Shown here: piece after piece, positions 191-26,379 of the stretch
How positions within the stretch are numbered: the stretch's first letter is position 1
How the letters are laid out: the number at the start of each line of letters is the position of its first letter
Assembly: GCF_017348835.2 (NCBI RefSeq)
Contig: NZ_CP071375.1
DNA: 64,000 nt
Direction: 5' to 3' (one strand)
DNA from: Escherichia coli
Lineage (GTDB): Bacteria > Pseudomonadota > Gammaproteobacteria > Enterobacterales > Enterobacteriaceae
The notes under the pieces: generated by a model
The model's database searches: none
What the model saw: the letters and a program-made list of their open reading frames with translations, nothing else
What the model was told of the DNA's origin: nothing
Program-made: the position numbers and the translations under genes

Positions 191-1616
191 TAATGCCAGT
201 CAGTTAAGCAACTGACTGGCTCTTTTTCGGGGCTGTGGGGTATTTCCAGGGCCTCTCCTTTACCACTCTCGGGAAGGCCCTTTCCCTTCTTGTCGGTAAT
301 TTCACAAGTTGTCCCATACTTGCAAGATCGCGCATCAGCTCCGGTATACGTCCCGGTGAAGCGCCCTGCAATGTCATCAGCATTCTCATCACCATTCCGC
401 ATGATTCTGAGAAGCTCAGTTGATTTGGCCAGTAACCTTTCAGATGTTCCGCCATTTTAATCATCTGATATCTCACCAGATTATAAGCCAGTAAGACACC
501 CCACAGCTCTTGCTCCACAAGCTCAGGCTTTTTACTTCTCAGCGTCAGCCTGCTCAGTTGCATCGTCTGTTTTATCTCCCTGTATCCCAGTTCGATTTCC
601 CAGCGATGACTGTACAGATCCGCCATTTCTCCTCCGGGGAAGCGCATGGCGTCCGTCATCGACGTCAGCAGATGGCAGACTTTTCCTTTGCGCGTCACGG
701 TCAGCAGGCGGGCTGTCACCTCATTTCCCAGTCCCGGCCACTTTTTTCGTGCCTGCGGGCTGGTTTTCAGCTTCACCAGATGATCGCCTTTACCCAGTTT
801 TCTGATCTCTTCATATTGCGCTCCCTTTCTGAGAGGGATCATCCAGTGGCGGTGTTCTCCCGCCAGGCTCCAGGCATTTAACAATCCCAGTGAGTAATAA
901 CCTTTATCCATTAACGTCAGAGTGTTATCGCCGGTTTGTTCTATAAGTTGCTCAGCAAGCTCATTTTCGCTGTTCTTCATCGTGCCGAAGGCTGCAGCCG
1001 TCAGCAGATGGCTGGTCAGTTCCATCTGGCAGACCATTTTGACCTGCGGGTAGAGCGCCGGGGTCCCGGCATGTGTCTGGCGAGGGAAGGCTGCATCGTT
1101 CTCTGGTGTATCCGGTGTGCGCCAGAACACACCATCGATGGCCAGCAGGGTCAGGCCGCACCAGTGCGGATGCGGCGTGGCGTTATGCCAGAGCTGCGCT
1201 GTTTTCGTGAACACGCGGCGGACAGCCTCACTTCCCAGGCGCTGGCGGGCCTGAATAACAGCACTGGGGGCAACGAAGGTGCGATTGCCCGGCAGCATGA
1301 TGTCCAGGCGATTCACAATCTGGTGAAGAGGTTCTTTACGCTCAAGCGCCATGCCAACAATACACCAGACCATCATTTCGAGGGGAAGACGGCGCTTGCG
1401 TAGCGTTACAGTACCTGATTCGGCAAGGCAACGAGAGATGAGTTCGGGGTCGAGGTAATCTCCCAGAGAAGTCAGTGGGTTACGCAGAGAATCGTAACGG
1501 GATACCAGATCAAGAGCCTGTCCAATGTGCATAAAAAAATCCGGAAACGAGTGAGCGTTTCCGGATTCTTACACAGCCACTGGATCGGTCAACTGATCCT
1601 TAACTGATCGGCATTA
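191..1616 (-). mobile_element. IS4: IS4 insertion sequence, 1426 bp, imperfect 18-bp terminal inverted repeats (TAATGCCAGTCAGTTAAG / TAATGCCGATCAGTTAAG, 16 of 18 match)
   Basis: Terminal inverted repeats read at both ends, single 442-aa transposase ORF, 12-bp flanking direct repeat; length matches IS4. Confidence 0.92.
204..1532 (-). CDS. insG: IS4 transposase (442 aa)
   Basis: Full-length ORF filling the element between the inverted repeats; protein recognised as IS4 transposase. Confidence 0.9.
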
Positions 1617-1628
1617 CTCAACGTGCGG
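1617..1628. repeat. 12-bp target-site duplication CTCAACGTGCGG, right copy, IS4 #1
   Basis: Exact match to 179-190. Confidence 0.9.
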
Positions 1629-1928
1629 GGGTTTTCTCTTTCCAGCAACCAATGCCACCAGGGATAAAGCCCCCGCAACATTGCGCCTCACCGGATAACG
1701 CCGGCTTGGTGTGGATACTACGTCTCAATTCATCTTCACTTCATCCCTGAAGTGTTTGCAATGAAGAGTACATTCCGGCTTTTCAACAGCTGTTGCAGTG
1801 GTTTCGTGCAGGTTGTGGTACAGGCTCGCAATTCTGATTAACGACCTGTCCAGGTAGTATGAAGAAATACAATAAGCAGGAATTTATATTATCTCCCCCG
1901 ATTTCCGTCATCGGAGGAGATATAACTG

Positions 1929-3029
1929 TCAGGCAAATATCGTCATCAAATAGGCGGCAAACAGTGCCAGATGCGCTGCGCCATTGAGCACGTTAGTACG
2001 TCCGGTGGAGAAGGAGATATGGCACAGCACTAAAGAGGCCACCATCACCACCATTTCTGGCGCACCAAGTGCAAACTGCAATTCGTTACCCGTCATAAAG
2101 GCAATTAGCGTGACGACAGGTACGGTAAGCGAAATTGTTGCTAACACTGAACCAAAGAACAGATTCATCGCGCGCTGGACCTGGTTGTTCAACACTGCTT
2201 TTAATGCACCTAAACCTTCCGGCGACAGAATCAACAGTGCCACCAGGAAGCCAGTAAAGGCGACAGGGGCATTCATGCTGTCGAGCAAAGTCTCCAGCGG
2301 GCTGGCGTTCATTTTGGTGACTGCAATAACGGCAATCAGGTGGATAATCAACCAGATAGCATGCCACAGGCTGCTATGGGCAGATGGTTTACCGTGATGC
2401 GGGTCGTCATCATCACTGTCATCTTCGTGCTCGTAGACAAACAAACTTTGATGCGTTTTGGTCTGGATCAGCAAAAATACGCCATACATTGCCGCAGAAA
2501 TTAATGCTACCAGTAACGCCTGACCGGTTGAAAAATTCGCCGCAGGCAGAGCCATTGGAAATACCAGTACGATTATCGCCAGGGGGAACAGCGCAATTAA
2601 ATACTGCTTGATACCAAACAGATTCATATATTGGGTGGCAAACTTACGACCGCCCAACAATAATGAAAAGCCAACCAGCCCACCGGTAACAATCATAATG
2701 ATTGAATAGAGCGTATCACGCATTAGCGTTGGCGCGGCGTCGCCGGTTGCCATTAAAGCTGAAATCAAACTGACTTCAAGAATAACCACTGAAAGGCTAA
2801 GAATAAGCGAACCGTAAGGTTCTCCCAGGCGATGGGCTAATACGTCCGCATGACGGACAACACTAAAGGCGCTACTTAAAATACCAATAAGCGCAAGAAG
2901 ATTGATGGCAATGACCACTGGTAGTGTCTGGCTGCTTCCCCACAGGAACAGCACTACCAGCGCCAGAACCGGGAAAATAAGCGAAGTCTCCTTGTGGCGG
3001 GTTTTTACCGCCTCTTGAGCATTTGACAT
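1929..3029 (-). CDS. chaA: Ca2+/H+ (Na+,K+/H+) antiporter ChaA, 366 aa
   Basis: Protein recognised as ChaA; ORF-track start at 3116 is an upstream extension, start set at the ATG giving MSNAQEAVKT. Confidence 0.85.
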   Translation of the reverse strand: MSNAQEAVKTRHKETSLIFPVLALVVLFLWGSSQTLPVVIAINLLALIGILSSAFSVVRHADVLAHRLGEPYGSLILSLSVVILEVSLISALMATGDAAPTLMRDTLYSIIMIVTGGLVGFSLLLGGRKFATQYMNLFGIKQYLIALFPLAIIVLVFPMALPAANFSTGQALLVALISAAMYGVFLLIQTKTHQSLFVYEHEDDSDDDDPHHGKPSAHSSLWHAIWLIIHLIAVIAVTKMNASPLETLLDSMNAPVAFTGFLVALLILSPEGLGALKAVLNNQVQRAMNLFFGSVLATISLTVPVVTLIAFMTGNELQFALGAPEMVVMVASLVLCHISFSTGRTNVLNGAAHLALFAAYLMTIFA

Positions 3030-3298
3030 TATGGTTATCCCTTTGCAGATGAATTTATCGAAAATGTAAAAAATAGGTAGGAAAAATAACAGAAAGTGTC
3101 TGGATATCGGTAACATTTTACGAATTTTTACCCCGCTGTCGATTTTTTACTCATTGGGACATAAAAATAAGTAATACGTTTAGACAATGTTTGTTTTAGC
3201 GTTTCTTAAGAACAGTCTGACATGAAAATTCTCATGTTTTGGCAAGAGTAGATATTGTTGACCACACTTAATGTTCAACTTTGTAAAAGGAGTCAACG

Positions 3299-3529
3299 AT
3301 GCCGTATAAAACGAAAAGCGATCTGCCGGAAAGCGTAAAGCACGTTCTACCGTCTCATGCCCAGGATATCTATAAAGAAGCGTTCAACAGCGCATGGGAT
3401 CAATATAAAGATAAAGAAGATCGGCGTGATGACGCCAGTCGCGAAGAAACCGCGCATAAAGTGGCCTGGGCTGCTGTGAAACATGAATATGCCAAAGGGG
3501 ATGATGATAAATGGCATAAAAAATCGTAA
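3299..3529 (+). CDS. chaB: Cation transport regulator ChaB, 76 aa
   Basis: Protein and synteny match ChaB. Confidence 0.85.
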   Translation: MPYKTKSDLPESVKHVLPSHAQDIYKEAFNSAWDQYKDKEDRRDDASREETAHKVAWAAVKHEYAKGDDDKWHKKS

Positions 3530-3686
3530 AACCGGTAGCTTAGTTAAAGCTATTCGTGCGGTGTTGCCTTGCAAGTGGTCCGTGGATTGCATATTGTCCC
3601 GTTAGTGGTTTCAAAATGAGCAGTAAAAATGTCCGGAAGACACCAAAAAGTTGTCGCAGGGAAGTATGCAGTGGCGGAGGTGTAAG

Positions 3687-4382
3687 GTGATAACGCGTGA
3701 TTTCTTGATGAATGCCGATTGTAAAACGGCATTTGGTGCCATTGAAGAATCACTCTTATGGTCAGCAGAACAACGGGCGGCTTCGCTGGCGGCGACGCTG
3801 GCTTGTCGACCTGATGAGGGACCAGTGTGGATCTTCGGTTATGGATCGTTGATGTGGAATCCGGCACTGGAGTTTACCGAATCGTGCACCGGTACACTGG
3901 TTGGATGGCATCGCGCGTTTTGCCTGCGCCTGACCGCCGGGCGCGGGACTGCGCACCAGCCGGGACGGATGCTTGCACTGAAAGAGGGCGGACGCACCAC
4001 AGGCGTCGCCTATCGACTGCCTGAAGAGACGCTGGAGCAGGAACTAACCCTGTTGTGGAAGCGAGAGATGATTACCGGCTGTTATCTGCCAACCTGGTGC
4101 CAGCTTGATCTTGATGATGGACGCACAGTAAACGCCATTGTGTTTATTATGGACCCGCGACATCCAGAATATGAATCTGACACTCGCGCTCAGGTCATAG
4201 CGCCGTTGATTGCGGCGGCGAGCGGTCCGCTGGGAACCAACGCACAATACCTGTTTTCACTGGAACAGGAGCTTATCAAACTGGGAATGCAGGACGATGG
4301 GCTGAATGATTTGCTGGTATCGGTAAAAAAACTGCTGGCGGAGAATTATCCGGATGGTGTGTTAAGGCCGGGATTCGCCTGA
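3687..4382 (+). CDS. chaC: Glutathione-specific gamma-glutamylcyclotransferase ChaC, 231 aa
   Basis: Protein match; start set at the GTG giving MITRDFLMNADCK (ORF-track TTG start at 3651 is an extension). Confidence 0.8.
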   Translation: MITRDFLMNADCKTAFGAIEESLLWSAEQRAASLAATLACRPDEGPVWIFGYGSLMWNPALEFTESCTGTLVGWHRAFCLRLTAGRGTAHQPGRMLALKEGGRTTGVAYRLPEETLEQELTLLWKREMITGCYLPTWCQLDLDDGRTVNAIVFIMDPRHPEYESDTRAQVIAPLIAAASGPLGTNAQYLFSLEQELIKLGMQDDGLNDLLVSVKKLLAENYPDGVLRPGFA

Positions 4383-4425
4383 GTAAACTTCCCTCATAGT
4401 GGGGCGTCAGACGCCCCCTCAAACA

Positions 4426-4779
4426 TTAAAATGTGAGCACTTTATCGGCTGACAGCGTCCATTGCGCCAGTTCCACAAGAGCACCGATTTCCACCCCATC
4501 AATAAGAGGAAGTGTGCTAATCCCGCGCCCGTCGGTACAGGTTTTGCACAATTTCACCGGTACATTCTGAGCGGTAAGGATCTCCAGCATTTGCTGAATG
4601 TTGTAGCCTTCCCCTGGTTTTTGCCCGCGCAACCCGGCTGTGACCGCATCAGACATCAGGAACAGACGCAGATCCAGATTGCTCTCCTGCTCTCGTAACG
4701 CAATGGCCAGCCGCAAGCTGTTAAACAAGGATTCGCTCCCGTAAGGTGCGCCATTGGCAACGATCACGATTTTTTGCAT
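4426..4779 (-). CDS. ychN: DsrE/DsrF-like family protein YchN, 117 aa
   Basis: Protein and synteny match YchN. Confidence 0.85.
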   Translation of the reverse strand: MQKIVIVANGAPYGSESLFNSLRLAIALREQESNLDLRLFLMSDAVTAGLRGQKPGEGYNIQQMLEILTAQNVPVKLCKTCTDGRGISTLPLIDGVEIGALVELAQWTLSADKVLTF

Positions 4780-4796
4780 TATTTACTCCTGTATTC

Positions 4797-4900
<104 letters not shown>

Positions 4901-4901
4901 T

Positions 4902-6359
<1,458 letters not shown>

Positions 6360-7010
6360 TCAGAAAATGCGCTCCTGATGCACCCATACCGCTGCTTCCA
6401 CGCGAGACTTGAGCTTCATTTTCTTCAGCATGTGCTTGACGTGCACTTTTACTGTGCTTTCGGTGATGTCCAGGCGGCGGGCAATCATCTTGTTCGGCAA
6501 ACCCTGGGCAATCAGCTTGAGAATATCGCGCTCGCGTGGGGTTAACTGGTTAACATCGCGCTCAGTCGTGGCACGGTTAGCGCGCAAGCTGGCGGCCAGA
6601 ACAGGCGTTAATGCTTCGCTTAATACCATTTCGCCAGCAGCTGCCTGATGCAATGCTTTCAGCAGATCTTCCGGTTCCATATCTTTTAACAGATAGCCAT
6701 CCGCGCCGCGTTTCAGTGCGGTGACCACATCTTCTTCATGGTTAGAGACGCTGAATACCACAATGCGCCCTGAGAGAGACTTTTCGCGCAGTTTATCCAG
6801 CGTTTCCAGACCGTTCATGCCGGGCATATTGAGATCTAACAGGATCAGATCGGGATCAAGAGATTCCGCCAGTTCAATACCCTGTTCGCCATTACTCGCT
6901 TCGCCAACCACGGTGATATCTGGTGCCATACTGATAAGCTGTTTTACGCCAGTTCGCAACATCGGGTGATCGTCGATCAGCAGGATAGTAGCCGGTTCCT
7001 GATTACTCAT
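6360..7010 (-). CDS. narL: Nitrate/nitrite response regulator NarL, 216 aa
   Basis: [23 protein letters not shown]-terminus and LuxR-type C-terminus; start overlaps the narX stop by 8 nt. Confidence 0.92.
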
Positions 7011-8799
7011 GGGTATCTCCTTGGACGTCTGTGAAAGTTTTTTCGGGAATAAAGGTGACCACCACTTCGGTGCCACCTGATTCACGACGGCGGACGCGGC
7101 AATCGCCTCGTAAACTTTGCGCACGGTCGCGCATTATTATCATGCCGTAGTGATTGCTGCGGATGGCATTTTCAGGCACGCCGCAGCCGTTATCCTGGAC
7201 GGTCAATTTGACCTGATTATCGTTTTGCGCCACCGTCACCACGACCTCACTCGCTTGCGAATGTTTGAGGGCGTTACTTAATGCCTCACGGGCAATTTGC
7301 AACAAGTGGATTGCCTGATGCGAAGGCACCAGACGAGGCGGCAATTGATAATCCAGCTTCACCGGGAAGCCAAATTTGGCGCTGTACTCTTCGCAACTCG
7401 CCTCCAGCGCCGGACGTAATCCAGGCTCGGTGAGCTGCAAGCGGAATGTGGTGAGCAATTCACGCAACTGCGCCCAGGATGCATTCAGTTCGTTACGGAT
7501 CTGACTTAACAGTTCGCGGCTGCTTTCTGGCAGCGCATCGCCCTGCATCTGTAAACAACTCACCTGCATCTTCATGCAAGAGAGAGATTGGGCAATAGAA
7601 TCATGCAGTTCGCGCGCAATGGTGGCACGCTCTTCCATCACGATCAACTGTTGCTGACGTTCCTGATGCCGATCCAGCGCCAGCGTGGCGGTGAGTTGTT
7701 CAACCAGGGTATCCACCAGTTGTTGTTGATCATGGCTAAGATGACGCCCCTGCGGCAGGGTCGCCAGCAAAATACCGTACTGCGTATGAGAGTCAGCCAG
7801 CCGCCACTTCAGGGTCGTGCCGCGATCACCAACGGGTAATACGCCGCGCGGGCAGAGCTGGCAGCCTTTATCATCACAAGTCATATCTGGCTGGCAGGTA
7901 AACTCCTGATGATTCTCTTCATCATCAGTGTCATACACCCGCAGTTCGATATCACGTAGCAGGGTTAAATTCTGTAAGCCGTTGAGTACAGGTGACAGGC
8001 GTTCACACAGCGGGGCGCGGGAATGCAAACGGCGGTTAGCCTGCCATAAAAAAGAGAGGATCTGATTTTTATGCTCCAGCCCGGCGGTTTTCTCCTGAAC
8101 CCGCTGCTCAAGTACGGCATAACTTTCGGCCAGTTCTGCAGACATATTGTTCAATGCAGTTCCAAGCATCGCCATTTCGTTGCGCCCGCTGATGTTTGCG
8201 CGTTGGGTAAAATCGCGATGGCTGACGGCACTCGCCATTGCCAGCAGTTGCCGCCACGGTTGTAGCAGTCGCGCCCGCAACCAGATAATAGTGAACACCA
8301 GTAAAAGTGCCATAAATACCGCCATTACCCGATGGACCAGTACCACTGTCTCAATGCGCATTTCCGTGGTGCGGTCAAAACCAGATACCAGCTGATCAAG
8401 CCCGGCAACAAACTGGCTGACATCCGCTGACACCGTTTCTCGGTTTTGTGCACGCATCAGCGCAGGGATCAGTTCATTACGCCAGTAATCTTGTAAACCC
8501 TGTAATTGCGCCAGTTGTCCGTCTCGTTCTGCTGCTCGAGTCAACTCGGCGCTAAATGCCGTTTGTTCCATCTCTTTAATTAAGGGCTTGTCTTTCTCGC
8601 TTAATGGCACTGCTGCCAACAGACGGTAACTTTGCATGCGCAGCGATCCCGCTTTGTTGATCGCATGGGCACTGCCCTGAACGCCTTGCACCAGCCAGCC
8701 AGAAACCGCCATCCCTGCCAGTCCAATAGCAGTAGAAAGCAACACAATAAGCGCAACCTGATTAACCAGGGTGAGCGGAGAGAGACAACGTTTAAGCAT
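7003..8799 (-). CDS. narX: Nitrate/nitrite sensor histidine kinase NarX, 598 aa
   Basis: Protein and synteny match NarX. Confidence 0.92.
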
Positions 8800-9064
8800 G
8801 TAAACCTCTTCCTTCTGGCTTTAAATGAGCAATAACCTTAATGAATGTGACGATACATTCTGGAATGGCAGTATTCTCGGCTATTGGCTGAAGTATACCC
8901 ATACCCGGAAAGAGTTACTCCTTATTTGCCGTGTGGTTAGTCGCTTTACATCGGTAAGGGTAGGGATTCTACAGCACCGTGAAAAATCTCATAATTTTTA
9001 TGAAATCACTGTACTCACTATGGGTAGTGATAAATATCAATGATAGATAAAGTTATCTTATCGT

Positions 9065-9078
9065 TTGATTTACATCAA
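9065..9078 (+). promoter_or_regulatory. FNR box TTGATTTACATCAA in the narK promoter
   Basis: Perfect TTGAT-N4-ATCAA palindrome about 60 bp upstream of the narK start codon. Confidence 0.7.
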
Positions 9079-9137
9079 ATTGCCTTTAGCTACAGACACT
9101 AAGGTGGCAGACATCGAAACGAGTATCAGAGGTGTCT

Positions 9138-10529
9138 ATGAGTCACTCATCCGCCCCCGAAAGGGCTACTGGAGCTGTCATTACAGATTGGCGACCGGAA
9201 GATCCTGCGTTCTGGCAACAACGCGGTCAACGTATTGCCAGCCGCAACCTGTGGATTTCCGTTCCCTGTCTGCTGCTGGCGTTTTGCGTATGGATGTTGT
9301 TCAGCGCTGTTGCGGTGAACTTACCGAAAGTCGGTTTTAATTTTACGACCGATCAGCTATTTATGTTGACTGCGCTGCCTTCGGTTTCTGGCGCGTTATT
9401 ACGTGTTCCATACTCCTTTATGGTTCCTATCTTCGGTGGTCGTCGCTGGACGGCGTTCAGCACCGGTATTCTGATTATTCCTTGCGTCTGGCTGGGTTTT
9501 GCCGTGCAGGATACCTCCACGCCTTATAGCGTCTTCATCATCATCTCTCTGCTGTGCGGCTTTGCTGGCGCGAACTTCGCATCCAGTATGGCAAACATCA
9601 GCTTCTTCTTTCCGAAACAGAAGCAGGGTGGCGCGCTGGGTCTGAATGGTGGTCTGGGCAACATGGGCGTCAGCGTCATGCAGTTGGTTGCTCCGCTGGT
9701 GGTATCACTGTCGATTTTCGCAGTATTTGGTAGCCAGGGCGTCAAACAGCCGGATGGGACTGAGCTGTATCTGGCGAATGCGTCCTGGATATGGGTGCCG
9801 TTCCTTGCCATCTTCACCATTGCGGCGTGGTTTGGCATGAACGATCTTGCTACCTCGAAAGCCTCCATCAAGGAGCAGTTGCCGGTACTCAAACGGGGTC
9901 ATCTGTGGATTATGAGCCTGCTGTATCTGGCAACCTTCGGCTCCTTTATCGGCTTCTCCGCGGGCTTTGCGATGCTGTCAAAAACGCAGTTCCCGGATGT
10001 TCAGATTCTGCAATACGCTTTCTTCGGGCCGTTTATTGGTGCGCTGGCGCGTTCTGCAGGTGGTGCATTATCTGACCGTCTGGGCGGAACTCGTGTCACG
10101 CTGGTGAACTTTATTCTGATGGCGATTTTCAGCGGCCTGCTGTTCCTGACCTTACCGACTGACGGGCAGGGCGGAAGCTTCATGGCGTTCTTCGCGGTCT
10201 TCCTGGCGCTGTTCCTGACAGCTGGGCTGGGTAGTGGTTCCACTTTCCAGATGATTTCAGTGATCTTCCGTAAACTGACAATGGATCGCGTGAAAGCAGA
10301 AGGGGGTTCTGACGAACGTGCGATGCGTGAAGCGGCAACCGACACGGCGGCGGCGCTGGGTTTCATCTCTGCGATTGGCGCGATTGGTGGCTTCTTTATC
10401 CCGAAAGCGTTTGGTAGCTCGCTGGCATTAACGGGTTCGCCAGTCGGCGCAATGAAGGTATTTTTGATTTTCTATATCGCCTGCGTAGTGATTACCTGGG
10501 CGGTATATGGTCGGCATTCTAAAAAATAA
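9138..10529 (+). CDS. narK: Nitrate/nitrite transporter NarK (MFS), 463 aa
   Basis: Protein match; start set at the ATG giving MSHSSAPERATGAV. Confidence 0.9.
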   Translation: MSHSSAPERATGAVITDWRPEDPAFWQQRGQRIASRNLWISVPCLLLAFCVWMLFSAVAVNLPKVGFNFTTDQLFMLTALPSVSGALLRVPYSFMVPIFGGRRWTAFSTGILIIPCVWLGFAVQDTSTPYSVFIIISLLCGFAGANFASSMANISFFFPKQKQGGALGLNGGLGNMGVSVMQLVAPLVVSLSIFAVFGSQGVKQPDGTELYLANASWIWVPFLAIFTIAAWFGMNDLATSKASIKEQLPVLKRGHLWIMSLLYLATFGSFIGFSAGFAMLSKTQFPDVQILQYAFFGPFIGALARSAGGALSDRLGGTRVTLVNFILMAIFSGLLFLTLPTDGQGGSFMAFFAVFLALFLTAGLGSGSTFQMISVIFRKLTMDRVKAEGGSDERAMREAATDTAAALGFISAIGAIGGFFIPKAFGSSLALTGSPVGAMKVFLIFYIACVVITWAVYGRHSKK

Positions 10530-10552
10530 ATCTTAATATTTGATTATCCTTT

Positions 10553-10578
10553 GCGCGGCATGATGTCGCGCTTTTTTT
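10553..10578 (+). terminator. Rho-independent terminator after narK (GCGCGGCATGATGTCGCGC + T7)
   Basis: GC-rich hairpin followed by a T-tract. Confidence 0.6.
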
Positions 10579-10816
10579 ATGCGTCATTTAGTTACAACAT
10601 ACTAACGTTATATGGTTTATTTCGCCGGATTTAATTAAGAGCCATTAATACGTTACCCATGGGGAATACTCCTTAATACCCATTTGCATAAAAATCTTAA
10701 TAGTTTAAATAACTACAGGTATAAAACATCTTAATTTACAGCATGTTATGCTGTAACTGTTAATTATCCTAAAGGGGTATCTTAGGAATTTACTTTATTT
10801 TTCATCCCCATCACTC

Positions 10817-10830
10817 TTGATCGTTATCAA
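10817..10830 (+). promoter_or_regulatory. FNR box TTGATCGTTATCAA of the narG promoter; NarL heptamer-like TACYYMT motifs lie upstream at about 10655-10690
   Basis: Palindrome read directly; position about 90 bp upstream of the narG ATG is consistent with the known -41.5 FNR site. Confidence 0.7.
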
Positions 10831-10921
10831 TTCCCACGCTGTTTCAGAGCGTTACCTTGCCCTTAAACATTAGCAATGTCGATTTATCAGAGGGCCGACA
10901 GGCTCCCACAGGAGAAAACCG

Positions 10922-16200: not shown

Positions 16201-16907
16201 TCGAACTCGTGATTGTATCGCGTCTCCTTGAATATCCGGATGCTGCCTTATGGCAGCATCAACAAGAGATGTTTGAGGCGATTGCCGCGTCGAAAAATCT
16301 GCCAAAAGAGGATGCCCATGCGCTGGGCATTTTCCTGCGCGATTTAACGACGATGGATCCGCTCGATGCCCAGGCGCAGTACAGCGAACTGTTCGACCGT
16401 GGCCGCGCCACGTCACTGTTGCTGTTTGAACATGTGCACGGCGAATCCCGCGACCGCGGCCAGGCGATGGTGGACCTGCTGGCGCAGTACGAGCAGCACG
16501 GCTTGCAGTTAAACAGCCGCGAATTGCCGGATCATCTGCCGCTGTATCTGGAGTACCTGTCGCAGCTGCCGCAAAGCGAAGCCGTGGAAGGTTTGAAAGA
16601 TATCGCGCCGATTCTGGCATTGCTGAGCGCGCGTCTGCAACAGCGTGAAAGCCGTTATGCCGTGCTGTTTGATCTGCTGCTGAAATTGGCCAATACCGCT
16701 ATCGACAGCGACAAAGTGGCGGAAAAAATTGCCGACGAAGCGCGCGATGATACGCCGCAGGCGCTGGATGCTGTCTGGGAAGAAGAGCAGGTTAAATTCT
16801 TTGCTGACAAAGGCTGCGGTGATTCAGCAATCACTGCTCATCAGCGTCGCTTTGCCGGTGCCGTCGCGCCGCAATATCTGAATATCACCACCGGAGGACA
16901 GCACTAA
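16197..16907 (+). CDS. narJ: Nitrate reductase assembly chaperone NarJ, 236 aa
   Basis: Protein and synteny; 4-nt overlaps at both ends. Confidence 0.92.
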
Positions 16908-17584
16908 TGCAATTCCTGAATATGTTCTTCTTTGATATCTACCCGTACATAGCCGGGGCGGTCTTCCTGATTGGTAGCTGGCTGCGTTATGACTACGGGC
17001 AGTACACCTGGCGCGCGGCGTCCAGCCAGATGCTGGATCGCAAAGGGATGAACCTGGCGTCGAACCTGTTCCATATCGGTATTCTGGGGATTTTTGTCGG
17101 TCACTTCTTCGGTATGTTGACGCCGCACTGGATGTATGAAGCCTGGCTGCCGATTGAAGTGAAACAGAAAATGGCGATGTTTGCTGGTGGTGCCAGCGGC
17201 GTGCTGTGTCTGATTGGCGGCGTGCTATTGCTCAAACGCCGCCTGTATAGCCCGCGCGTGCGTGCAACCACTACCGGAGCGGATATCCTGATCCTGTCGC
17301 TGCTCGTTATCCAGTGCGCGCTGGGCCTGCTGACCATTCCATTCTCCGCTCAGCATATGGACGGTAGCGAGATGATGAAACTGGTTGGCTGGGCGCAGTC
17401 GGTGGTGACCTTCCACGGTGGCGCTTCTCAACACCTCGATGGTGTGGCGTTTATCTTCCGTCTGCACCTGGTGCTGGGGATGACGTTATTCCTGCTGTTC
17501 CCATTCTCGCGTCTGGTACACATCTGGAGCGTACCGGTGGAGTATCTGACACGTAAGTACCAGCTGGTGCGCGCTCGTCACTAA
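16907..17584 (+). CDS. narI: Nitrate reductase A gamma subunit NarI (cytochrome b), 225 aa
   Basis: Protein and synteny. Confidence 0.92.
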
Positions 17585-17605
17585 GCGAATTTTAGTTCAC
17601 ATAGA

Positions 17606-17628
17606 CCCTGCTTCGGCGGGGTTTTTTT
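17606..17628 (+). terminator. Rho-independent terminator of the narGHJI operon
   Basis: CCCTGCTTCGGCGGGG hairpin followed by T7. Confidence 0.6.
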
Positions 17629-17649
17629 ATGGGCACGGTGCGGGGTGAG

Positions 17650-17710
17650 TTGTCGGATGCGCTTCGCTTATCCGACCTACAGGGGAGGATATTGTAGGTC
17701 CGGTAAACGT
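17650..17710. repeat. REP-like palindromic unit(s)
   Basis: TGTCGGATGCGCTTCGCTTATCCGACCTACAGG resembles the REP consensus. Confidence 0.4.
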
Positions 17711-17767
17711 GGTGCCATCGGGCAAAATTAGCTCGGAGTAACAGGTTTTGATTATTTCAGGAAGCGA

Positions 17768-17945
17768 TGGTGGTGGGGGAAGGATTACTCAGCGCTGCGC
17801 GCTTCGCCCTTCGGGTCGTTGCCTGCGGCAACGCTCTCTCGCTGGCGCTCGAGTCGAACCTTGGTCGAAGCTTCTCGTCCTTCCCCGCTTGGGCAGAATA
17901 TTAATTTACGGATTCGCTTGAGAGTTCAGGTACTTTTGAAAGTGA
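17768..17945 (-). repeat. tpr: tyrT-distal repeat unit (about 178 bp) carrying a copy of the tRNA-Tyr 3' end; the region is known to encode the small protamine-like Tpr (ORF not delimited here)
   Basis: GATGGTGGTGGGGGAAGGATT recurs at 17768, 17945 and 18064. Confidence 0.5.
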
Positions 17946-18030
<85 letters not shown>

Positions 18031-18064
18031 AGGGGTAATTCAAATTTCGAGGTAATGCTTGAGA

Positions 18065-18149
<85 letters not shown>

Positions 18150-18194
18150 ACGGGGTAATGCTTTTTACTGGCCTGCTCCCTTATCGGGAAGCGG

Positions 18195-18230
18195 GGCGCA
18201 TCATATCAAATGACGCGCCGCTGTAAAGTG
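18195..18230 (-). promoter_or_regulatory. tyrT promoter (-35 TTTACA at 18223-18228, -10 TATGAT at 18200-18205, GC-rich discriminator GCGCCCCGCTTCC)
   Basis: Matches the classic stringently controlled tyrT promoter; hexamers read on the minus strand. Confidence 0.75.
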
Positions 18231-18308
18231 TTACGTTGAGAAAAATGAACTGGTTGCGTAATTTTCATCCGTAACGGATTAAAGGTAACCAGTTATTTTT
18301 GCTGGCGA

Positions 18309-19151
18309 TTAAAGAATAATCGTCCGATTACCGTAAACAAAGACGCGCTGCGCCAGTACTTTGTAGAGCGCGCGACTTAAGACGTTTTTCTCGACGTCAC
18401 GACCTGCGCGCATCATATCTTCAGCTGTGTAGGTATGATCGACATGAATAACGTCCTGCATGATGATTGGGCCTTCGTCCAGATTGTCATTCACATAGTG
18501 AGCGGTTGCGCCAATAATCTTCACGCCACGTTCATAGGCCTGGTGATAAGGACGTGCGCCGATAAACGCTGGCAGGAAGGAATGGTGAATATTGATGATC
18601 TTATTCGGGAAGCGTGACACAAATTCCGGTGTTAATACCCGCATATACTTCGCCAGCACCACGTAGTCAGGTTGATAAGCATCAATGGCATCCGCCATCT
18701 TTTGATCGTGCTCGTTGCGGCTTAACCCTTCATGGCTTACCAGCTCAAACGGAATATTAAAACGCTCAACCAGAGAACGCAAAGTATCGTGGTTACCAAT
18801 AACTGCCGCGATTTCGACATCCAGGCCGCCGTAATTGGCTTTCATCAACAAATCGCCAAGGCAATGAGCCTCTTTAGTGACCAGAATCACTATCCGGCGA
18901 CGACCGGCAGGATTCAGCTCACGCACGGAGCCTTCTGGCAATGCGCTATCGAGATCCGCCAGCAGGGTGGAATCATTAAAAATCCCTTCCAGTTCCGTGC
19001 GCATAAAAAAGCGCCCGGTACGGTGATCAACAAATTCATTGTTCTGTACGATATTTAACTCGTGCTTGTAGCAAATATTGGTAATACGTGCGATCAGACC
19101 TTTTTGGTCCGGACAAATAGTACGCAGAACTTTACGTTGGAGTGAATGCAT
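18309..19151 (-). CDS. purU: Formyltetrahydrofolate deformylase PurU, 280 aa
   Basis: Protein and synteny. Confidence 0.9.
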   Translation of the reverse strand: MHSLQRKVLRTICPDQKGLIARITNICYKHELNIVQNNEFVDHRTGRFFMRTELEGIFNDSTLLADLDSALPEGSVRELNPAGRRRIVILVTKEAHCLGDLLMKANYGGLDVEIAAVIGNHDTLRSLVERFNIPFELVSHEGLSRNEHDQKMADAIDAYQPDYVVLAKYMRVLTPEFVSRFPNKIINIHHSFLPAFIGARPYHQAYERGVKIIGATAHYVNDNLDEGPIIMQDVIHVDHTYTAEDMMRAGRDVEKNVLSRALYKVLAQRVFVYGNRTIIL

Positions 19152-19200
19152 TGCTGGAAAAACCTTGTTGAGAGTGTTTGCTAAACCGTACCGTCAACCA

Positions 19201-19659
19201 TTATTGGCCGCAGCACTTTTTAAATTTTTTACCTGAACCACAAGGGCAGGGATCGTTGCGGCCAAACTGCGGACGTGTACCGTCAATATAGTACCATTGA
19301 CCGTTTTCTTTCAAAAATCGCGAACGTTCAATTATTGCACCTGTTTTGCCACCTTCGGTAAATCGCGCAACAAAACTAACAAATCCGATATTGTCGGCGT
19401 CCTGCCAACAATGTTCAAATACGGTCAATCCCAACCATTCAGTATGCGCAAATCCGGCAATCAATTCGGCACGTAACGCCGCTGCTCCACAAGATGGATG
19501 CCAGGTCTTTATTAAATAATCTGCGTCTTGCATCACAAAAGCGCAGTAACGCGAACGCATGAGATGTTCTGGATCAGGTGCAACCTTTTCACCAGACACA
19601 TAAGGGTGGCAACATAGGCTATACTCGACAGCACTACCACAGGGACAAAGCTGAGACAC
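19201..19659 (-). CDS. ychJ: UPF0225 SEC-C-motif protein YchJ, 152 aa
   Basis: CPCGSG metal-binding motifs at both ends; start set at the GTG giving (M)SQLCPCGS. Confidence 0.75.
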
Positions 19660-19771
19660 AAATAATCTCCCTGGAAACAATAACGGCGTATTAACCGCCT
19701 GAGTAGCACTATGTTAACCGAGCAGTAGCGATGTGGCTACGATTGCATTCCAGGGGAATCTTGCGGGAATA

Positions 19772-20677
19772 ATGAGAAAGATAAAAATAGGGCTGGCGCT
19801 GGGATCTGGCGCGGCGAGAGGTTGGTCGCATATTGGCGTTATTAATGCGCTAAAAAAAGTGGGTATTGAAATTGATATCGTTGCAGGATGTTCAATTGGT
19901 TCGCTGGTGGGCGCGGCCTATGCATGCGATCGATTATCTGCGCTGGAAGATTGGGTAACCTCTTTCAGTTATTGGGATGTTTTACGCCTGATGGATCTCT
20001 CCTGGCAGCGCGGTGGGTTACTGCGCGGCGAGCGTGTCTTCAATCAATACCGCGAAATAATGCCGGAAACAGAGATCGAAAATTGTTCCCGTCGCTTCGC
20101 GGCTGTTGCCACCAATTTAAGTACGGGGCGTGAATTATGGTTTACTGAAGGCGATCTCCATCTTGCTATTCGCGCATCATGCAGTATTCCAGGACTCATG
20201 GCACCCGTTGCGCATAACGGCTACTGGCTGGTTGATGGGGCAGTCGTTAACCCAATTCCTATTTCGCTCACGCGTGCATTGGGTGCTGATATTGTGATAG
20301 CGGTCGACCTGCAGCACGATGCTCATTTGATGCAACAAGATTTGCTCTCCTTTAATGTCAGTGAAGAAAATAGCGAGAATGGTGATTCTCTGCCGTGGCA
20401 TGCGCGTCTGAAAGAAAGGTTAGGCAGCATAACGACACGTCGGGCGGTGACAGCACCAACGGCAACAGAGATTATGACCACTTCTATCCAGGTGCTGGAG
20501 AACCGCCTTAAAAGGAACCGCATGGCAGGTGATCCGCCCGATATTCTGATTCAACCTGTTTGCCCGCAAATATCTACGCTTGATTTCCATCGCGCGCACG
20601 CTGCCATTGCGGCCGGACAGCTGGCAGTGGAAAAGAAAATGGACGAACTTTTGCCGTTGGTACGCACCAACATTTGA
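19772..20677 (+). CDS. rssA: Patatin-like phospholipase RssA, 301 aa
   Basis: GxGxxG and GCSIG motifs; start set at the ATG giving MRKIKIGLALGSG. Confidence 0.8.
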   Translation: MRKIKIGLALGSGAARGWSHIGVINALKKVGIEIDIVAGCSIGSLVGAAYACDRLSALEDWVTSFSYWDVLRLMDLSWQRGGLLRGERVFNQYREIMPETEIENCSRRFAAVATNLSTGRELWFTEGDLHLAIRASCSIPGLMAPVAHNGYWLVDGAVVNPIPISLTRALGADIVIAVDLQHDAHLMQQDLLSFNVSEENSENGDSLPWHARLKERLGSITTRRAVTAPTATEIMTTSIQVLENRLKRNRMAGDPPDILIQPVCPQISTLDFHRAHAAIAAGQLAVEKKMDELLPLVRTNI

Positions 20678-20768
20678 CCAGAATTTTTATCTACACTTAA
20701 GTTAATTCTGACAGGCGCAGGTGGCAATAGCATGCCACTATTGAGTAAAGCCAGTCAGGGGAGAGAAC

Positions 20769-21782
20769 ATGACGCAGCCATTGGTCGGAAAACAGATTCT
20801 CATTGTTGAAGATGAGCAGGTATTTCGCTCGCTTCTGGATTCGTGGTTTTCCTCATTGGGAGCGACAACGGTACTGGCGGCTGATGGGGTGGATGCCCTT
20901 GAGTTGCTGGGAGGTTTCACTCCAGACCTGATGATATGTGATATCGCGATGCCACGAATGAACGGGCTTAAACTGCTGGAACATATACGCAACAGAGGTG
21001 ATCAGACACCGGTTCTGGTGATATCTGCCACCGAAAATATGGCAGATATTGCCAAAGCGTTACGTCTGGGCGTTGAAGATGTTTTGCTGAAACCAGTTAA
21101 AGATCTGAATCGCTTGCGCGAGATGGTTTTTGCCTGTCTCTATCCCAGCATGTTTAATTCGCGCGTTGAGGAAGAGGAAAGGCTTTTTCGCGACTGGGAT
21201 GCAATGGTTGATAACCCTGCCGCAGCGGCGAAATTATTACAGGAACTACAACCGCCGGTTCAGCAGGTGATTTCCCATTGCCGGGTTAATTACCGTCAAT
21301 TGGTTGCCGCGGACAAACCCGGCCTGGTGCTTGATATTGCCGCACTTTCGGAAAACGATCTGGCATTTTATTGCCTTGATGTAACCCGAGCTGGACATAA
21401 TGGCGTACTTGCTGCCTTGTTATTACGCGCATTGTTTAACGGATTATTACAGGAACAGCTTGCACACCAAAATCAACGGTTGCCAGAGTTGGGCGCGTTA
21501 TTGAAGCAGGTAAACCATTTACTCCGTCAGGCCAATCTGCCGGGGCAGTTTCCGCTATTAGTTGGCTATTATCATCGCGAACTGAAAAATCTCATTCTGG
21601 TTTCTGCGGGTCTGAATGCGACGTTAAATACCGGCGAACACCAGGTGCAAATCAGTAATGGTGTTCCGTTAGGCACTTTAGGTAACGCTTATTTGAATCA
21701 ATTGAGCCAGCGATGCGATGCCTGGCAATGCCAAATATGGGGAACCGGTGGTCGACTGCGCTTGATGTTGTCTGCAGAATGA
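20769..21782 (+). CDS. rssB: RpoS-degradation adaptor response regulator RssB, 337 aa
   Basis: Receiver domain N-terminus; synteny. Confidence 0.9.
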   Translation: MTQPLVGKQILIVEDEQVFRSLLDSWFSSLGATTVLAADGVDALELLGGFTPDLMICDIAMPRMNGLKLLEHIRNRGDQTPVLVISATENMADIAKALRLGVEDVLLKPVKDLNRLREMVFACLYPSMFNSRVEEEERLFRDWDAMVDNPAAAAKLLQELQPPVQQVISHCRVNYRQLVAADKPGLVLDIAALSENDLAFYCLDVTRAGHNGVLAALLLRALFNGLLQEQLAHQNQRLPELGALLKQVNHLLRQANLPGQFPLLVGYYHRELKNLILVSAGLNATLNTGEHQVQISNGVPLGTLGNAYLNQLSQRCDAWQCQIWGTGGRLRLMLSAE

Positions 21783-21983
21783 GCAAACGATAACGCGGGC
21801 TAAATTTGCATTACCTGCTAATGTCGGCTGGTGGTACTATCGTCGCCATTCGTATAAGTAATTGTCTTAATTATGCTAACTCGCCTCCTTTTCAGAACTT
21901 AGCCCCTTCGGGGTGCTGATATACTGGGATGCGATACAGAAATATGAACACGTTCAAAACACGAACAGTCCAGGAGAATTTAA

Positions 21984-22892
21984 ATGGCTGCCATTAATAC
22001 GAAAGTCAAAAAAGCCGTTATCCCCGTTGCGGGATTAGGAACCAGGATGTTGCCGGCGACGAAAGCCATCCCGAAAGAGATGCTGCCACTTGTCGATAAG
22101 CCATTAATTCAATACGTCGTGAATGAATGTATTGCGGCTGGCATTACTGAAATTGTGCTGGTTACACACTCATCTAAAAACTCTATTGAAAACCACTTTG
22201 ATACCAGTTTTGAACTGGAAGCAATGCTGGAAAAACGTGTAAAACGTCAACTGCTTGATGAAGTGCAGTCTATTTGTCCGCCGCACGTAACTATTATGCA
22301 AGTTCGTCAGGGGCTGGCGAAAGGCCTGGGACACGCGGTATTGTGTGCTCACCCGGTAGTGGGTGATGAACCTGTGGCTGTTATTTTGCCTGACGTTATT
22401 CTGGATGAATATGAATCCGATTTGTCACAGGATAACCTGGCAGAGATGATCCGCCGCTTTGATGAAACGGGTCATAGCCAGATCATGGTTGAACCGGTTG
22501 CTGATGTGACCGCATATGGCGTTGTGGATTGCAAAGGCGTTGAATTAGCGCCGGGTGAAAGCGTACCGATGGTTGGCGTGGTTGAAAAACCAAAAGCGGA
22601 TGTTGCGCCGTCTAATCTCGCTATTGTGGGTCGTTACGTACTTAGCGCGGATATTTGGCCGTTGCTGGCAAAAACCCCTCCGGGAGCTGGTGATGAAATT
22701 CAGCTCACCGACGCAATTGATATGCTGATCGAAAAAGAAACGGTTGAAGCCTATCATATGAAAGGGAAGAGCCATGACTGCGGTAATAAATTAGGTTACA
22801 TGCAGGCCTTCGTTGAATACGGTATTCGTCATAACACCCTTGGCACGGAATTTAAAGCCTGGCTTGAAGAAGAGATGGGCATTAAGAAGTAA
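21984..22892 (+). CDS. galU: UTP-glucose-1-phosphate uridylyltransferase GalU, 302 aa
   Basis: Protein and synteny. Confidence 0.92.
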
Positions 22893-22916
22893 CATCCGTA
22901 TCGGTGTTATCCACGA

Positions 22917-22948
22917 AACGGCGTTGAGCAATCGACGCCGTTTTTTTA
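22917..22948 (+). terminator. Rho-independent terminator after galU
   Basis: AACGGCGTTGAGCAATCGACGCCGTT + T7. Confidence 0.65.
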
Positions 22949-22983
22949 TAGCTTATTCTTATTAAATTGTCTTAAACCGGACA

Positions 22984-23012
22984 ATAAAAAATCCCGCCGA
23001 TGGCGGGATTTT
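22984..23012 (-). terminator. Rho-independent terminator after hns
   Basis: AATCCCGCCGATGGCGGGATT hairpin with a T-run on the minus strand. Confidence 0.65.
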
Positions 23013-23035
23013 AAGCAAGTGCAATCTACAAAAGA

Positions 23036-23449
23036 TTATTGCTTGATCAGGAAATCGTCGAGGGATTTACCTTGCTCATCCATTGCTTTTTTGATTACAG
23101 CTGGAGTACGGCCCTGGCCAGTCCAGGTTTTAGTTTCGCCGTTTTCGTCAACGTAGCTATATTTTGCCGGACGCTGAGCACGTTTAGCTTTGGTGCCAGA
23201 TTTAACGGCGGCAAGGCTATTCAGCAGCTCGTTCGGGTCAATACCGTCAGCGATCAGCATTTCGCGATATTGCTGCAGTTTACGAGTGCGCTCTTCAACT
23301 TCAGCAGCAGCCGCGCTTTCTTCTTCGCGACGTTCGTTAACAACAACTTCTAATTTTTCCAGCATTTCTTCCAGCGTTTCAAGTGTACATTCTCTTGCCT
23401 GCGCACGAAGAGTACGGATGTTGTTCAGAATTTTAAGTGCTTCGCTCAT
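23036..23449 (-). CDS. hns: Nucleoid-associated protein H-NS, 137 aa
   Basis: [21 protein letters not shown]-terminus. Confidence 0.95.
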
Positions 23450-24052
23450 TGTAGTAATCTCAAACTTATATTGGGGTGGTTTGTTGAGGTAATAATAGAG
23501 CCTTAAATTCAGTTGTGCAATAGCCAGGAATGTAAGGAATTCAAAATTGTTCTTTATTTTGTGCCGCCAATAAATATCTTTTCATAAAATTAGCCAGAAA
23601 AGACGCGGCATATAGCCCTATTTGTACCGATGATTTCGCAGCACGTGAGGTTAAAACTTCCTGATTCATGTCACATTTTATGGGGAGATTATCGTAGGCT
23701 GACGACCTTTCAGTCTTCTGTATTAGTCGTGTTTACGAGAATTCCCTATTAAGCGAATGATGAAAAGTAGAACAGTCGCAATAAGAGCAGGGACTTAGTA
23801 TTGCACTATCTCCTGGAGGTCAACAGAGGGCTATTACTTGCGCAACAGGTTAAAGATTGTGAATAGTTACCAGCAGTCATTTACCCGCTTATAACAAGCG
23901 AGGCAGTTGTAATGATAGCTCAGAAGGATTATGCAAGGCTTCGTAAGGGAGAACGCATATACCACTTCTGTGCATACTGTTGAGCTGAAAAACTGACGAA
24001 TTATGATAAACTCCAGCCAACTTTATTTCATATCATTGAGGGCCTGTGGCTG

Positions 24053-24670
24053 ATGGCACAGCTATATTTCTACTATTCCGCAATGAATGCGGGTAAGTCT
24101 ACAGCATTGTTGCAATCTTCATACAATTACCAGGAACGCGGCATGCGCACTGTCGTATATACGGCAGAAATTGATGATCGCTTTGGTGCCGGGAAAGTCA
24201 GTTCGCGTATAGGTTTGTCATCGCCTGCAAAATTATTTAACCAAAATTCATCATTATTTGATGAGATTCGTGCGGAACATGAACAGCAGGCAATTCATTG
24301 CGTACTGGTTGATGAATGCCAGTTTTTAACCAGACAACAAGTATATGAATTATCGGAGGTTGTCGATCAACTCGATATACCCGTACTTTGTTATGGTTTA
24401 CGTACCGATTTTCGAGGTGAATTATTTATTGGCAGCCAATACTTACTGGCATGGTCCGACAAACTGGTTGAATTAAAAACCATCTGTTTTTGTGGCCGTA
24501 AAGCAAGCATGGTGCTGCGTCTTGATCAAGCAGGCAGACCTTATAACGAAGGTGAGCAGGTGGTTATTGGTGGTAATGAACGATACGTTTCTGTATGCCG
24601 TAAACACTATAAAGAGGCGTTACAAGTCGGCTCATTAACGGCTATTCAGGAAAGGCATCGCCACGACTAA
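24053..24670 (+). CDS. tdk: Thymidine kinase, 205 aa
   Basis: P-loop NAGKST near the N-terminus; synteny. Confidence 0.92.
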
Positions 24671-24929
24671 TAAGAATTTCTTTACTGACAGGGTGAGCAG
24701 GGCACTTTTATCCTGTCAGTTCGTTTTACGCACTTCTTCCGGGCTATACACCCTTCTCGGCAGTTTTTTAACGCCGCTATACGCCTCACAGGGCTCTTAA
24801 GCACCGACGTTGACTTGTGACCTGTAAAGTACAGTATCCTGTGTTTAGGCGTTATACATCGTCGCAAATATGATGAAGGCTAATGCTGTCGGTTTATGGA
24901 AAAGTTGCTTTGGGTAAACAAAAAAACGG

Positions 24930-24941
24930 CCCCAGAAGGGG
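24930..24941. repeat. 12-bp target-site duplication CCCCAGAAGGGG, left copy, IS4 #2
   Basis: Identical 12-mer at 26368-26379. Confidence 0.9.
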
Positions 24942-26367
24942 TAATGCCAGTCAGTTAAGCAACTGACTGGCTCTTTTTCGGGGCTGTGGGGTATTTCCAG
25001 GGCCTCTCCTTTACCACTCTCGGGAAGGCCCTTTCCCTTCTTGTCGGTAATTTCACAAGTTGTCCCATACTTGCAAGATCGCGCATCAGCTCCGGTATAC
25101 GTCCCGGTGAAGCGCCCTGCAATGTCATCAGCATTCTCATCACCATTCCGCATGATTCTGAGAAGCTCAGTTGATTTGGCCAGTAACCTTTCAGATGTTC
25201 CGCCATTTTAATCATCTGATATCTCACCAGATTATAAGCCAGTAAGACACCCCACAGCTCTTGCTCCACAAGCTCAGGCTTTTTACTTCTCAGCGTCAGC
25301 CTGCTCAGTTGCATCGTCTGTTTTATCTCCCTGTATCCCAGTTCGATTTCCCAGCGATGACTGTACAGATCCGCCATTTCTCCTCCGGGGAAGCGCATGG
25401 CGTCCGTCATCGACGTCAGCAGATGGCAGACTTTTCCTTTGCGCGTCACGGTCAGCAGGCGGGCTGTCACCTCATTTCCCAGTCCCGGCCACTTTTTTCG
25501 TGCCTGCGGGCTGGTTTTCAGCTTCACCAGATGATCGCCTTTACCCAGTTTTCTGATCTCTTCATATTGCGCTCCCTTTCTGAGAGGGATCATCCAGTGG
25601 CGGTGTTCTCCCGCCAGGCTCCAGGCATTTAACAATCCCAGTGAGTAATAACCTTTATCCATTAACGTCAGAGTGTTATCGCCGGTTTGTTCTATAAGTT
25701 GCTCAGCAAGCTCATTTTCGCTGTTCTTCATCGTGCCGAAGGCTGCAGCCGTCAGCAGATGGCTGGTCAGTTCCATCTGGCAGACCATTTTGACCTGCGG
25801 GTAGAGCGCCGGGGTCCCGGCATGTGTCTGGCGAGGGAAGGCTGCATCGTTCTCTGGTGTATCCGGTGTGCGCCAGAACACACCATCGATGGCCAGCAGG
25901 GTCAGGCCGCACCAGTGCGGATGCGGCGTGGCGTTATGCCAGAGCTGCGCTGTTTTCGTGAACACGCGGCGGACAGCCTCACTTCCCAGGCGCTGGCGGG
26001 CCTGAATAACAGCACTGGGGGCAACGAAGGTGCGATTGCCCGGCAGCATGATGTCCAGGCGATTCACAATCTGGTGAAGAGGTTCTTTACGCTCAAGCGC
26101 CATGCCAACAATACACCAGACCATCATTTCGAGGGGAAGACGGCGCTTGCGTAGCGTTACAGTACCTGATTCGGCAAGGCAACGAGAGATGAGTTCGGGG
26201 TCGAGGTAATCTCCCAGAGAAGTCAGTGGGTTACGCAGAGAATCGTAACGGGATACCAGATCAAGAGCCTGTCCAATGTGCATAAAAAAATCCGGAAACG
26301 AGTGAGCGTTTCCGGATTCTTACACAGCCACTGGATCGGTCAACTGATCCTTAACTGATCGGCATTA
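24942..26367 (-). mobile_element. IS4: IS4 insertion sequence, 1426 bp, second copy, same orientation as the first
   Basis: Same terminal inverted repeats and identical encoded proteins as the copy at 191-1616; own 12-bp target-site duplication. Confidence 0.92.
24955..26283 (-). CDS. insG: IS4 transposase (442 aa)
   Basis: Protein identical to the 204-1532 ORF. Confidence 0.9.
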
Positions 26368-26379
26368 CCCCAGAAGGGG
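26368..26379. repeat. 12-bp target-site duplication CCCCAGAAGGGG, right copy, IS4 #2
   Basis: Exact match to 24930-24941. Confidence 0.9.

Follow-up and report, generated by a model that had tools for sequence, protein, structure and literature searches.

Insertion sequence IS4 of Escherichia coli K-12 (gene insG; listed as IS4 in ISfinder) is the type element of its family, a unit of 1426 bp with imperfect terminal inverted repeats of 18 bp, a DDE transposase of 442 amino acids, a target duplication of 11-13 bp and a strong preference for certain targets. IS4-family elements such as IS10 and IS50 form composite transposons, and IS231A, a member of the family from Bacillus, is said, in work by Hallet and colleagues in 1994, to prefer a short GC-rich symmetric core between A/T tracts. 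The single IS4 of K-12 presumably lies at a locus different from the two that are the subject here. These were found in a 64,000-nucleotide stretch of an E. coli genome (contig NZ_CP071375.1; hereafter, the window), where two copies of IS4 bracket 23.3 kb of core genes, from chaA to tdk. We consider it very probable that the copies are two separate insertions, each in a terminator-like hairpin, which together form direct repeats, and that copy 1 is likely to have come from an identical IS4 resident in the same genome. The element agrees with K-12 IS4 in all the properties just listed, and the differences are confined to copy number and positions, in that K-12 carries one IS4 (PMC3032704, Table 3) and this clone carries several, two of them 24.7 kb apart. 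IS4 is a known element, the arrangement is also of a known kind, and the case is in both respects an ordinary one.

IS4 copy 1 occupies positions 191-1616 of the window and copy 2 positions 24942-26367, both on the minus strand. Direct string comparison shows every base of the two 1426-bp copies to be identical, and a perfect repeat of 1.4 kb is far beyond chance. The copies start 24,751 bp apart in the repeat search, with 23,325 bp (1617-24941) between them. The length, common orientation and spacing of the copies, and the identity of their proteins, had all been stated by an earlier first-pass annotation of this DNA and hold up base by base; a substantial difference between the copies at the nucleotide level would have told against the annotation, and they are 100% identical. 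Each copy contains one minus-strand open reading frame (ORF) of 442 codons, at 204-1532 and 24955-26283, respectively, and the two predicted proteins are the same. The terminal inverted repeats, at 191-208 and 1599-1616 in copy 1, read TAATGCCAGTCAGTTAAG and TAATGCCGATCAGTTAAG and match at 16 of their 18 positions. The transposase is recognized by the NCBIfam equivalog model NF033592 (transpos_IS4_1, IS4 family) with 305 bits and E = 4.5e-91, the cut-off being 115, and RefSeq labels the same element in another E. coli genome, PE164, as "IS4-like element IS4 family transposase". Length, ends, a single DDE ORF, target duplication and target preference are the features by which the element is defined at the sequence level, all of them are present, and by this standard the element is the classical E. 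coli IS4. The same site is filled in some and empty in other closely related genomes, which is indirect evidence and suggests cut-and-paste transposition. A script comparison found no further IS4 fragments in the 64-kb window besides the two copies.

Each copy stands between direct repeats of its own, perfect over 12 bp, CTCAACGTGCGG at 179-190 and 1617-1628 in the case of copy 1 and CCCCAGAAGGGG at 24930-24941 and 26368-26379 in the case of copy 2, the left-hand member of the second pair being half of the tdk/adhE terminator hairpin that the insertion has split. The two repeats are different from each other, and their length falls within the 11-13 bp range of IS4; the review of the IS4 family by De Palmenaer et al. 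(PMC2266710) gives, at the level of the family, a target duplication of about one helical turn. Empty versions of both sites are found in other genomes, the ldr-chaA site of copy 1 in strain F2_81 and the tdk-adhE site of copy 2 in the O103:H2 strain 12009. Among 5426 complete E. coli genomes, the ldr-chaA site is filled in only 3 and the tdk-adhE site holds an IS4 of intact size in 1135. With distinct and intact duplications, an empty counterpart of each site and independent occupancy, the two copies are independent insertions and not a transposed composite element, as the first-pass annotation had already argued from the distinct duplications. Both duplications are still matched pairs; therefore, recombination with another IS4 has not affected either copy since it was inserted.

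That IS4-23 kb-IS4 has moved, or could move, as a unit in the manner of a composite transposon is practically out of the question. The segment does stand between two complete IS4 copies whose ends are intact, and in this the locus is like Tn10 with IS10 or Tn5 with IS50, where two copies of one IS4-family element likewise enclose passenger DNA. However, no single duplication is found at the outer ends of the whole unit: copy 1 is bordered on its left by CTCAACGTGCGG and copy 2 on its right by CCCCAGAAGGGG, and each of these belongs to a pair of its own. Unlike the cargo of Tn10 and Tn5, the supposed passenger consists of 23 kb of syntenic core genes, and the copies are direct and not, as is usual in those transposons, inverted. 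The passenger does not stand in a new context either: the bracketed genes keep the order and place standard for E. coli, as in genomes that lack one or both IS4 copies, and the order kdsA-ldr-chaA-tdk-adhE-opp is the standard one in PE164, F2_81, SW07164 and RM8082. Finally, each of the two sites is filled independently across the population, and, as an account of the history of the locus, the composite transposon is already effectively refuted.

Copy 2 lies 41 nt downstream of the stop codon of adhE. The empty site, which in O103:H2 12009 reads AAAAAAACGGCCCCAGAAGGGGCCGTTTAT, folds as A-run/CGGCCCC-AGAA-GGGGCCG/T-run, with a free energy of -21 kcal/mol and z = -5.2, and is a bidirectional terminator between the convergent genes tdk and adhE. 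In 1886 of the 5426 genomes, K-12 included, this site contains a 989-bp defective element of the IS4 family (positions 3248-4236 of one such locus), which in K-12 is named ISZ' or insZ (PMC3032704, Table 3). ISZ' shares with copy 2 the target hairpin, the dyad within it and the orientation, and it has similar ends, CAATGCC…GGCATTG as against TAATGCC…GGCATTA in IS4. It differs from copy 2 in that it is shorter and is flanked by a 10-bp duplication (CCCAGAAGGG) and not one of 12 bp; its transposase is a frameshifted remnant with 31% protein identity to that of IS4, and there is no internal nucleotide similarity. Judged by these comparisons, ISZ' and IS4 are different elements, and copy 2 of the window is not ISZ'. 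Yet another state of the site is seen in strain AH21G053, where IS4 has lost 270 bp internally and has diverged by about 2%. Across the species, the tdk-adhE terminator is a hot spot with multiple states, containing IS4, decayed IS4, ISZ' or nothing, and its occupancy is handy as a lineage marker. The first-pass annotation had missed that one of its two copies is a common, long-standing insertion in a hot spot, and that both sites follow from the known target specificity of IS4.

Copy 1, for its part, interrupts the gene of an Rdl antitoxin small RNA. At the left edge of the window, the 5' part of a gene for an Ldr type I toxin (3-86, minus strand) is represented by the first 28 of its 35 codons, the rest being cut by the window edge (translation MTLAQFAMTFWHDLAAPILAGIITAAIV); the identical sequence is annotated in PE164 as Ldr family toxin. 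The truncated Rdl gene follows at 134-190 on the plus strand, where the Rfam model RF01813 (rdlD) matches positions 134-194. The insertion breaks the gene 9 nt before its 3' end, and the final 21 nt, the duplicated 12 included, are found at 1617-1637, on the other side of the element. The Rfam model accordingly gives 55.1 bits in the window, whereas the intact gene of F2_81 (positions 3069-3134 of the F2_81 locus) reaches 83.6 bits. When the intact RNA is folded, the insertion point falls in the 3' arm of the long terminator stem of Rdl. Both insertion points in the window are in terminator-like hairpins.

The left end of IS4 itself has a hairpin at 195-220, followed by TCTTTTT, which is terminator-like on the strand of Rdl. 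A chimeric Rdl might end at this hairpin. The ldr toxin ORF next to copy 1 is probably separated from its promoter; a promoter scan found no ldr promoter to the right of copy 1, and an effect on ldr expression is therefore something that we infer.

The three collection genomes with a filled ldr-chaA site, which makes this a rare insertion, are PE164, SW07164 and RM8082. In SW07164 and RM8082 the site is filled by a variant of IS4, 14-15 differences away from that of the window, and the tdk-adhE site holds ISZ', not IS4. In all three genomes and in the window, the position, the orientation and the duplication at ldr-chaA are identical. This pattern would fit repeated use of a preferred site; the alternative of one old event followed by widespread loss is less favoured. 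A hot spot for IS4 extending to ldr/rdl repeats in general was considered and dropped: the IS4 supposed to be in the ldrD repeat is actually inside bcsG, and the ldrD repeat is 1.6 kb away. Two further seeming occupants of ldr-chaA, matched with 69% coverage, were not counted; the IS4 there is inside an IS150 copy within the ldr/rdl repeat array.

As a test of target preference that does not depend on the window, one genome per species was scanned with the 30-nt left end of IS4. The scan yielded 67 loci, most of them in other genera of Enterobacterales (Kosakonia, Budvicia, Buttiauxella, Silvania, Rosenbergiella, Yersinia, Photorhabdus and others), and a position weight matrix was made from the 60 unique left flanks. 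Only 2 of the 67 loci have a clean duplication at both ends, so that the matrix is limited to the left arm and the duplication. The 60 flanks have an A-run at positions -23 to -16, a C-rich stretch at -12 to -9, and G at -4 and -1, and many of them are plain stem-loops, for example, aaaaaacacCCGCctgaaGCGG, then the element, then …GCGGgtgtttttttt. When the window was scored with both IS4 copies removed, the tdk-adhE site came 1st of 122,190 positions with 24.2 bits, a hit that is exact to the base and the strand.

The elements detected in this way, found in many other genera of Enterobacterales by an exact match to the 30-nt left end, nearly always follow an A-run and a GC-rich stem-loop, in the manner of an intrinsic terminator. 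The preferred landing places of IS4, and of elements with the same left end, are terminator-like hairpins, in this window even the terminator of a type I antitoxin small RNA. Papers on IS4 targets from the 1980s reportedly gave a consensus of roughly AAA-N20-TTT, with which the present pattern agrees. There may also be a likeness to the reported target of IS231A, in that the collected flanks have an A-run, a C-rich stretch and G-rich positions, and the sites with both arms a T-run as well; IS231A belongs to a different subgroup and a different host. A literature search on IS4 target specificity, insZ at tdk/adhE and IS-mediated hns-galU deletions returned no paper on this locus. Other high-scoring candidate sites, unoccupied in the window, are near IS-free coordinates 49828, 21539 and 60526.

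The history of the two copies can be approached through relatives of the window. PE164, isolated from a pig in China (NZ_CP114128.1), is the same clone and has IS4 at both sites. It shows 0 differences from the window in the 23,325 bp of the interval, 0 in the 190 bp to the left of copy 1 and 1 in the 37,633 bp to the right of copy 2; in other words, in 61 kb of unique DNA there is one difference, at window position 43830. F2_81 also belongs to this clone (2 differences in 21 kb); its tdk-adhE IS4 is identical to that of the window, and it is without copy 1. Copy 2 would then be the resident copy of the lineage, placed in the best IS4 target of the window, and copy 1 would be a rare insertion, most likely derived from an identical IS4 of the same genome, either copy 2 or another.

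The perfect identity of the copies might, instead of recent transposition from site to site, be due to gene conversion between older copies or to homogenization in the course of assembly and polishing, an explanation that we regard as unlikely but worth spelling out. Its best argument comes from PE164, where copy 1 differs from that of the window at IS4 positions 661 and 1276 and copy 2 at position 770, so that the two PE164 copies differ mutually at 3 positions, against the one difference in 61 kb of unique DNA. Moreover, the variant with 14-15 differences fills the ldr-chaA site in SW07164 and RM8082, so that an older insertion there is conceivable on sequence alone. On the other hand, the tdk-adhE IS4 of F2_81 is the same as that of the window, which suggests that the window has the true IS4 of the clone, that is, the clone consensus, and the differences private to PE164 may be sequencing errors. 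An occupancy of 3 in 5426, divided between two IS4 variants that each agree with the IS4 of their own lineage, is more in keeping with independent recent insertions at a preferred site than with a single ancient event.

We therefore keep to two separate insertions, copy 1 coming from a resident IS4, while recording several observations that weigh against this account or some part of it. Of the four differences between the window and PE164, three fall within the 2.85 kb of IS4 sequence, a concentration that suggests that one of the assemblies has undergone gene conversion or contains an error of sequencing or polishing connected with the repeats. A resident IS4 is only the presumed source of copy 1, and the perfect identity could also have come about through gene conversion or through assembly polishing across the repeats. 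F2_81 was initially a candidate for proof that copy 1 had been inserted recently, and was dropped in this role. It has one ldr/rdl repeat unit (2778-3437 of the F2_81 locus) vs two in PE164 (4139-6771 of the PE164 locus), and its unit is a chimera of the head of PE164 unit A and the tail of unit B, with a crossover interval that spans the IS4 insertion point. F2_81 may have lost copy 1 through recombination between the repeat units, and copy 1 may have been inserted before or after the split from F2_81. The left-arm matrix, which does so well with the tdk-adhE site, ranks the ldr-chaA site 8939th, with -2.2 bits; the score is poor because TTTT stands where the A-run is expected. The site keeps G at -1 and -4 and the right-hand T-run, and the target rule explains it only partly. 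As to the consequences of the repeats, synthetic queries were made for the junction that would result from deletion (kdsA/ldr-IS4-adhE) and for that of tandem duplication (tdk-IS4-chaA), and were compared with the 5426 genomes at a coverage of at least 80%. Each junction was found in 0 of 5426, in a search of little power, because PE164 is the sole genome of the collection with both copies. The best partial matches, with 71% coverage, are the halves of normal IS4-adhE or tdk-IS4 arrangements.

What the pair of copies may do is a separate matter. They face the same way and therefore make up perfect direct repeats of 1.4 kb, and the 23.3 kb between them carries genes that are important but non-essential, in that no gene of the interval is known to be essential in K-12. 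From what is generally known of homologous recombination, exchange between the copies could delete the segment or duplicate it in tandem. The first-pass annotation went further, regarding the repeats as substrates for RecA-dependent deletion or tandem amplification and attributing large pleiotropic effects to a loss or a changed dosage of hns and galU. The mechanism follows from general recombination knowledge and may stand; its products are another matter, with both junctions missing from the 5426 genomes and the interval of PE164 intact. Related assemblies, which the annotation had proposed as the place to look for deletion or amplification of the interval, provided no such case among the 5426 complete genomes.

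An active hot spot of rearrangement, where subpopulations of this clone delete or amplify the hns-galU-nar segment at appreciable frequency and with phenotypic consequences, is accordingly a very unlikely description of the IS4 pair. In its favour, the copies are perfect 1426-bp direct repeats only 23.3 kb apart, with no gene between them that is known to be essential in K-12. In E. coli evolution experiments, products of recombination between IS copies are common, and the IS1, IS150 and IS5 cases are like the present one in having identical direct repeats of more than 1 kb around dispensable genes; IS-associated deletions and duplications have been described (PMC11708052). In those cases, however, recombinant junctions were observed, and 0 were found here. 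In the window and in PE164, the two assemblies with the pair, the interval is present once and in intact form, and its arrangement is unchanged between them; the matched duplication pairs indicate that neither copy has exchanged flanks; and the joint loss of hns, galU and tyrT/tyrV would presumably be costly. We give even less credence to the stronger proposal that the 23-kb chaA-hns-tdk segment is a high-frequency contingency locus in this porcine clone. If it were one, hns, galU, tdk, narGHJI and tyrTV would all be lost in a single RecA-dependent deletion, tandem amplification would raise the dosage of H-NS, GalU and RssB, and either could give rise to standing subpopulations that are selected under attack by phages of the lipopolysaccharide core, by nucleoside analogues or under anaerobic nitrate conditions. 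It is well understood how direct IS repeats around dispensable genes give rise to deletions and duplications, and the significance of this pair is mostly in strain-level bookkeeping. In practice, those who assemble or engineer this clone may meet with instability or mis-assembly across 191-26367.

The bracketed core segment (1629-24929) was annotated by identity to the annotated PE164 genome, by ORFs, and by tRNA and Rfam matches. The gene order is chaA (minus strand), chaB, chaC, ychN (minus), ychO, narL (minus), narX (minus), narK, narGHJI, RtT/tyrT/tyrV (minus), purU (minus), ychJ (minus), rssA, rssB, galU, hns (minus) and tdk. The gene content given in the first-pass annotation (chaABC, narLXK-GHJI, tyrTV, purU, rssAB, galU, hns and tdk) is confirmed by the 100% identical annotated interval of PE164. 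chaA lies wholly within the bracket, and it is not chaA but the ldr/rdl type I toxin-antitoxin unit that adjoins copy 1 on the left. Beyond copy 2, the PE164 annotation continues rightward with adhE, ychE, the opp genes, tonB, the trp operon, topA and cysB, all ordinary core genome. Inside the interval, at 17768-18154, the tandem tRNA-Tyr genes tyrT and tyrV form a 92-nt repeat with 99% identity and a spacing of 119 nt, followed by RtT (Rfam RF00391, 132 bits), which is the standard E. coli layout.

Within the element, a perfect minus-strand stem-loop of about 11-14 bp, followed by U7 and with a free energy of -25.5 kcal/mol, stands directly upstream of the transposase ATG (1539-1566 in copy 1, 26290-26317 in copy 2). 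The sole promoter-like match near the transposase start, TTGACC-16-AAGAAT at 1592-1565, overlaps the upstream arm of this stem-loop. The hairpin would be expected to form in transcripts that enter from outside, for instance by read-through from adhE into copy 2, and not in native ones, and it looks like the usual protection of an IS against external transcription.

IS4 was also seen at several other places. Between ravA and kup of E. coli (positions 2514-3939 of that locus), it is flanked by the duplication CTCAAAGGGGGG, whose arms are an A-run and a T-run. The copy inside bcsG (locus positions 1506-2931) has a 13-bp duplication, CAGATGATTGGGG, and is common to many human isolates. Another E. 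coli genome has IS4 inside an IS150 copy, itself within an ldr/rdl repeat array. In more distant assemblies, Citrobacter sp. 18056 and Chryseobacterium sp. 18061, both labelled 'Ancestor', have an identical IS4 left flank, and in a metagenome-assembled genome of Oscillospiraceae the left end matches at position 2 of a 1403-bp contig that, by its length and this match, would contain little more than IS4; these three matches are probably cross-contamination or binning artefacts in public assemblies.

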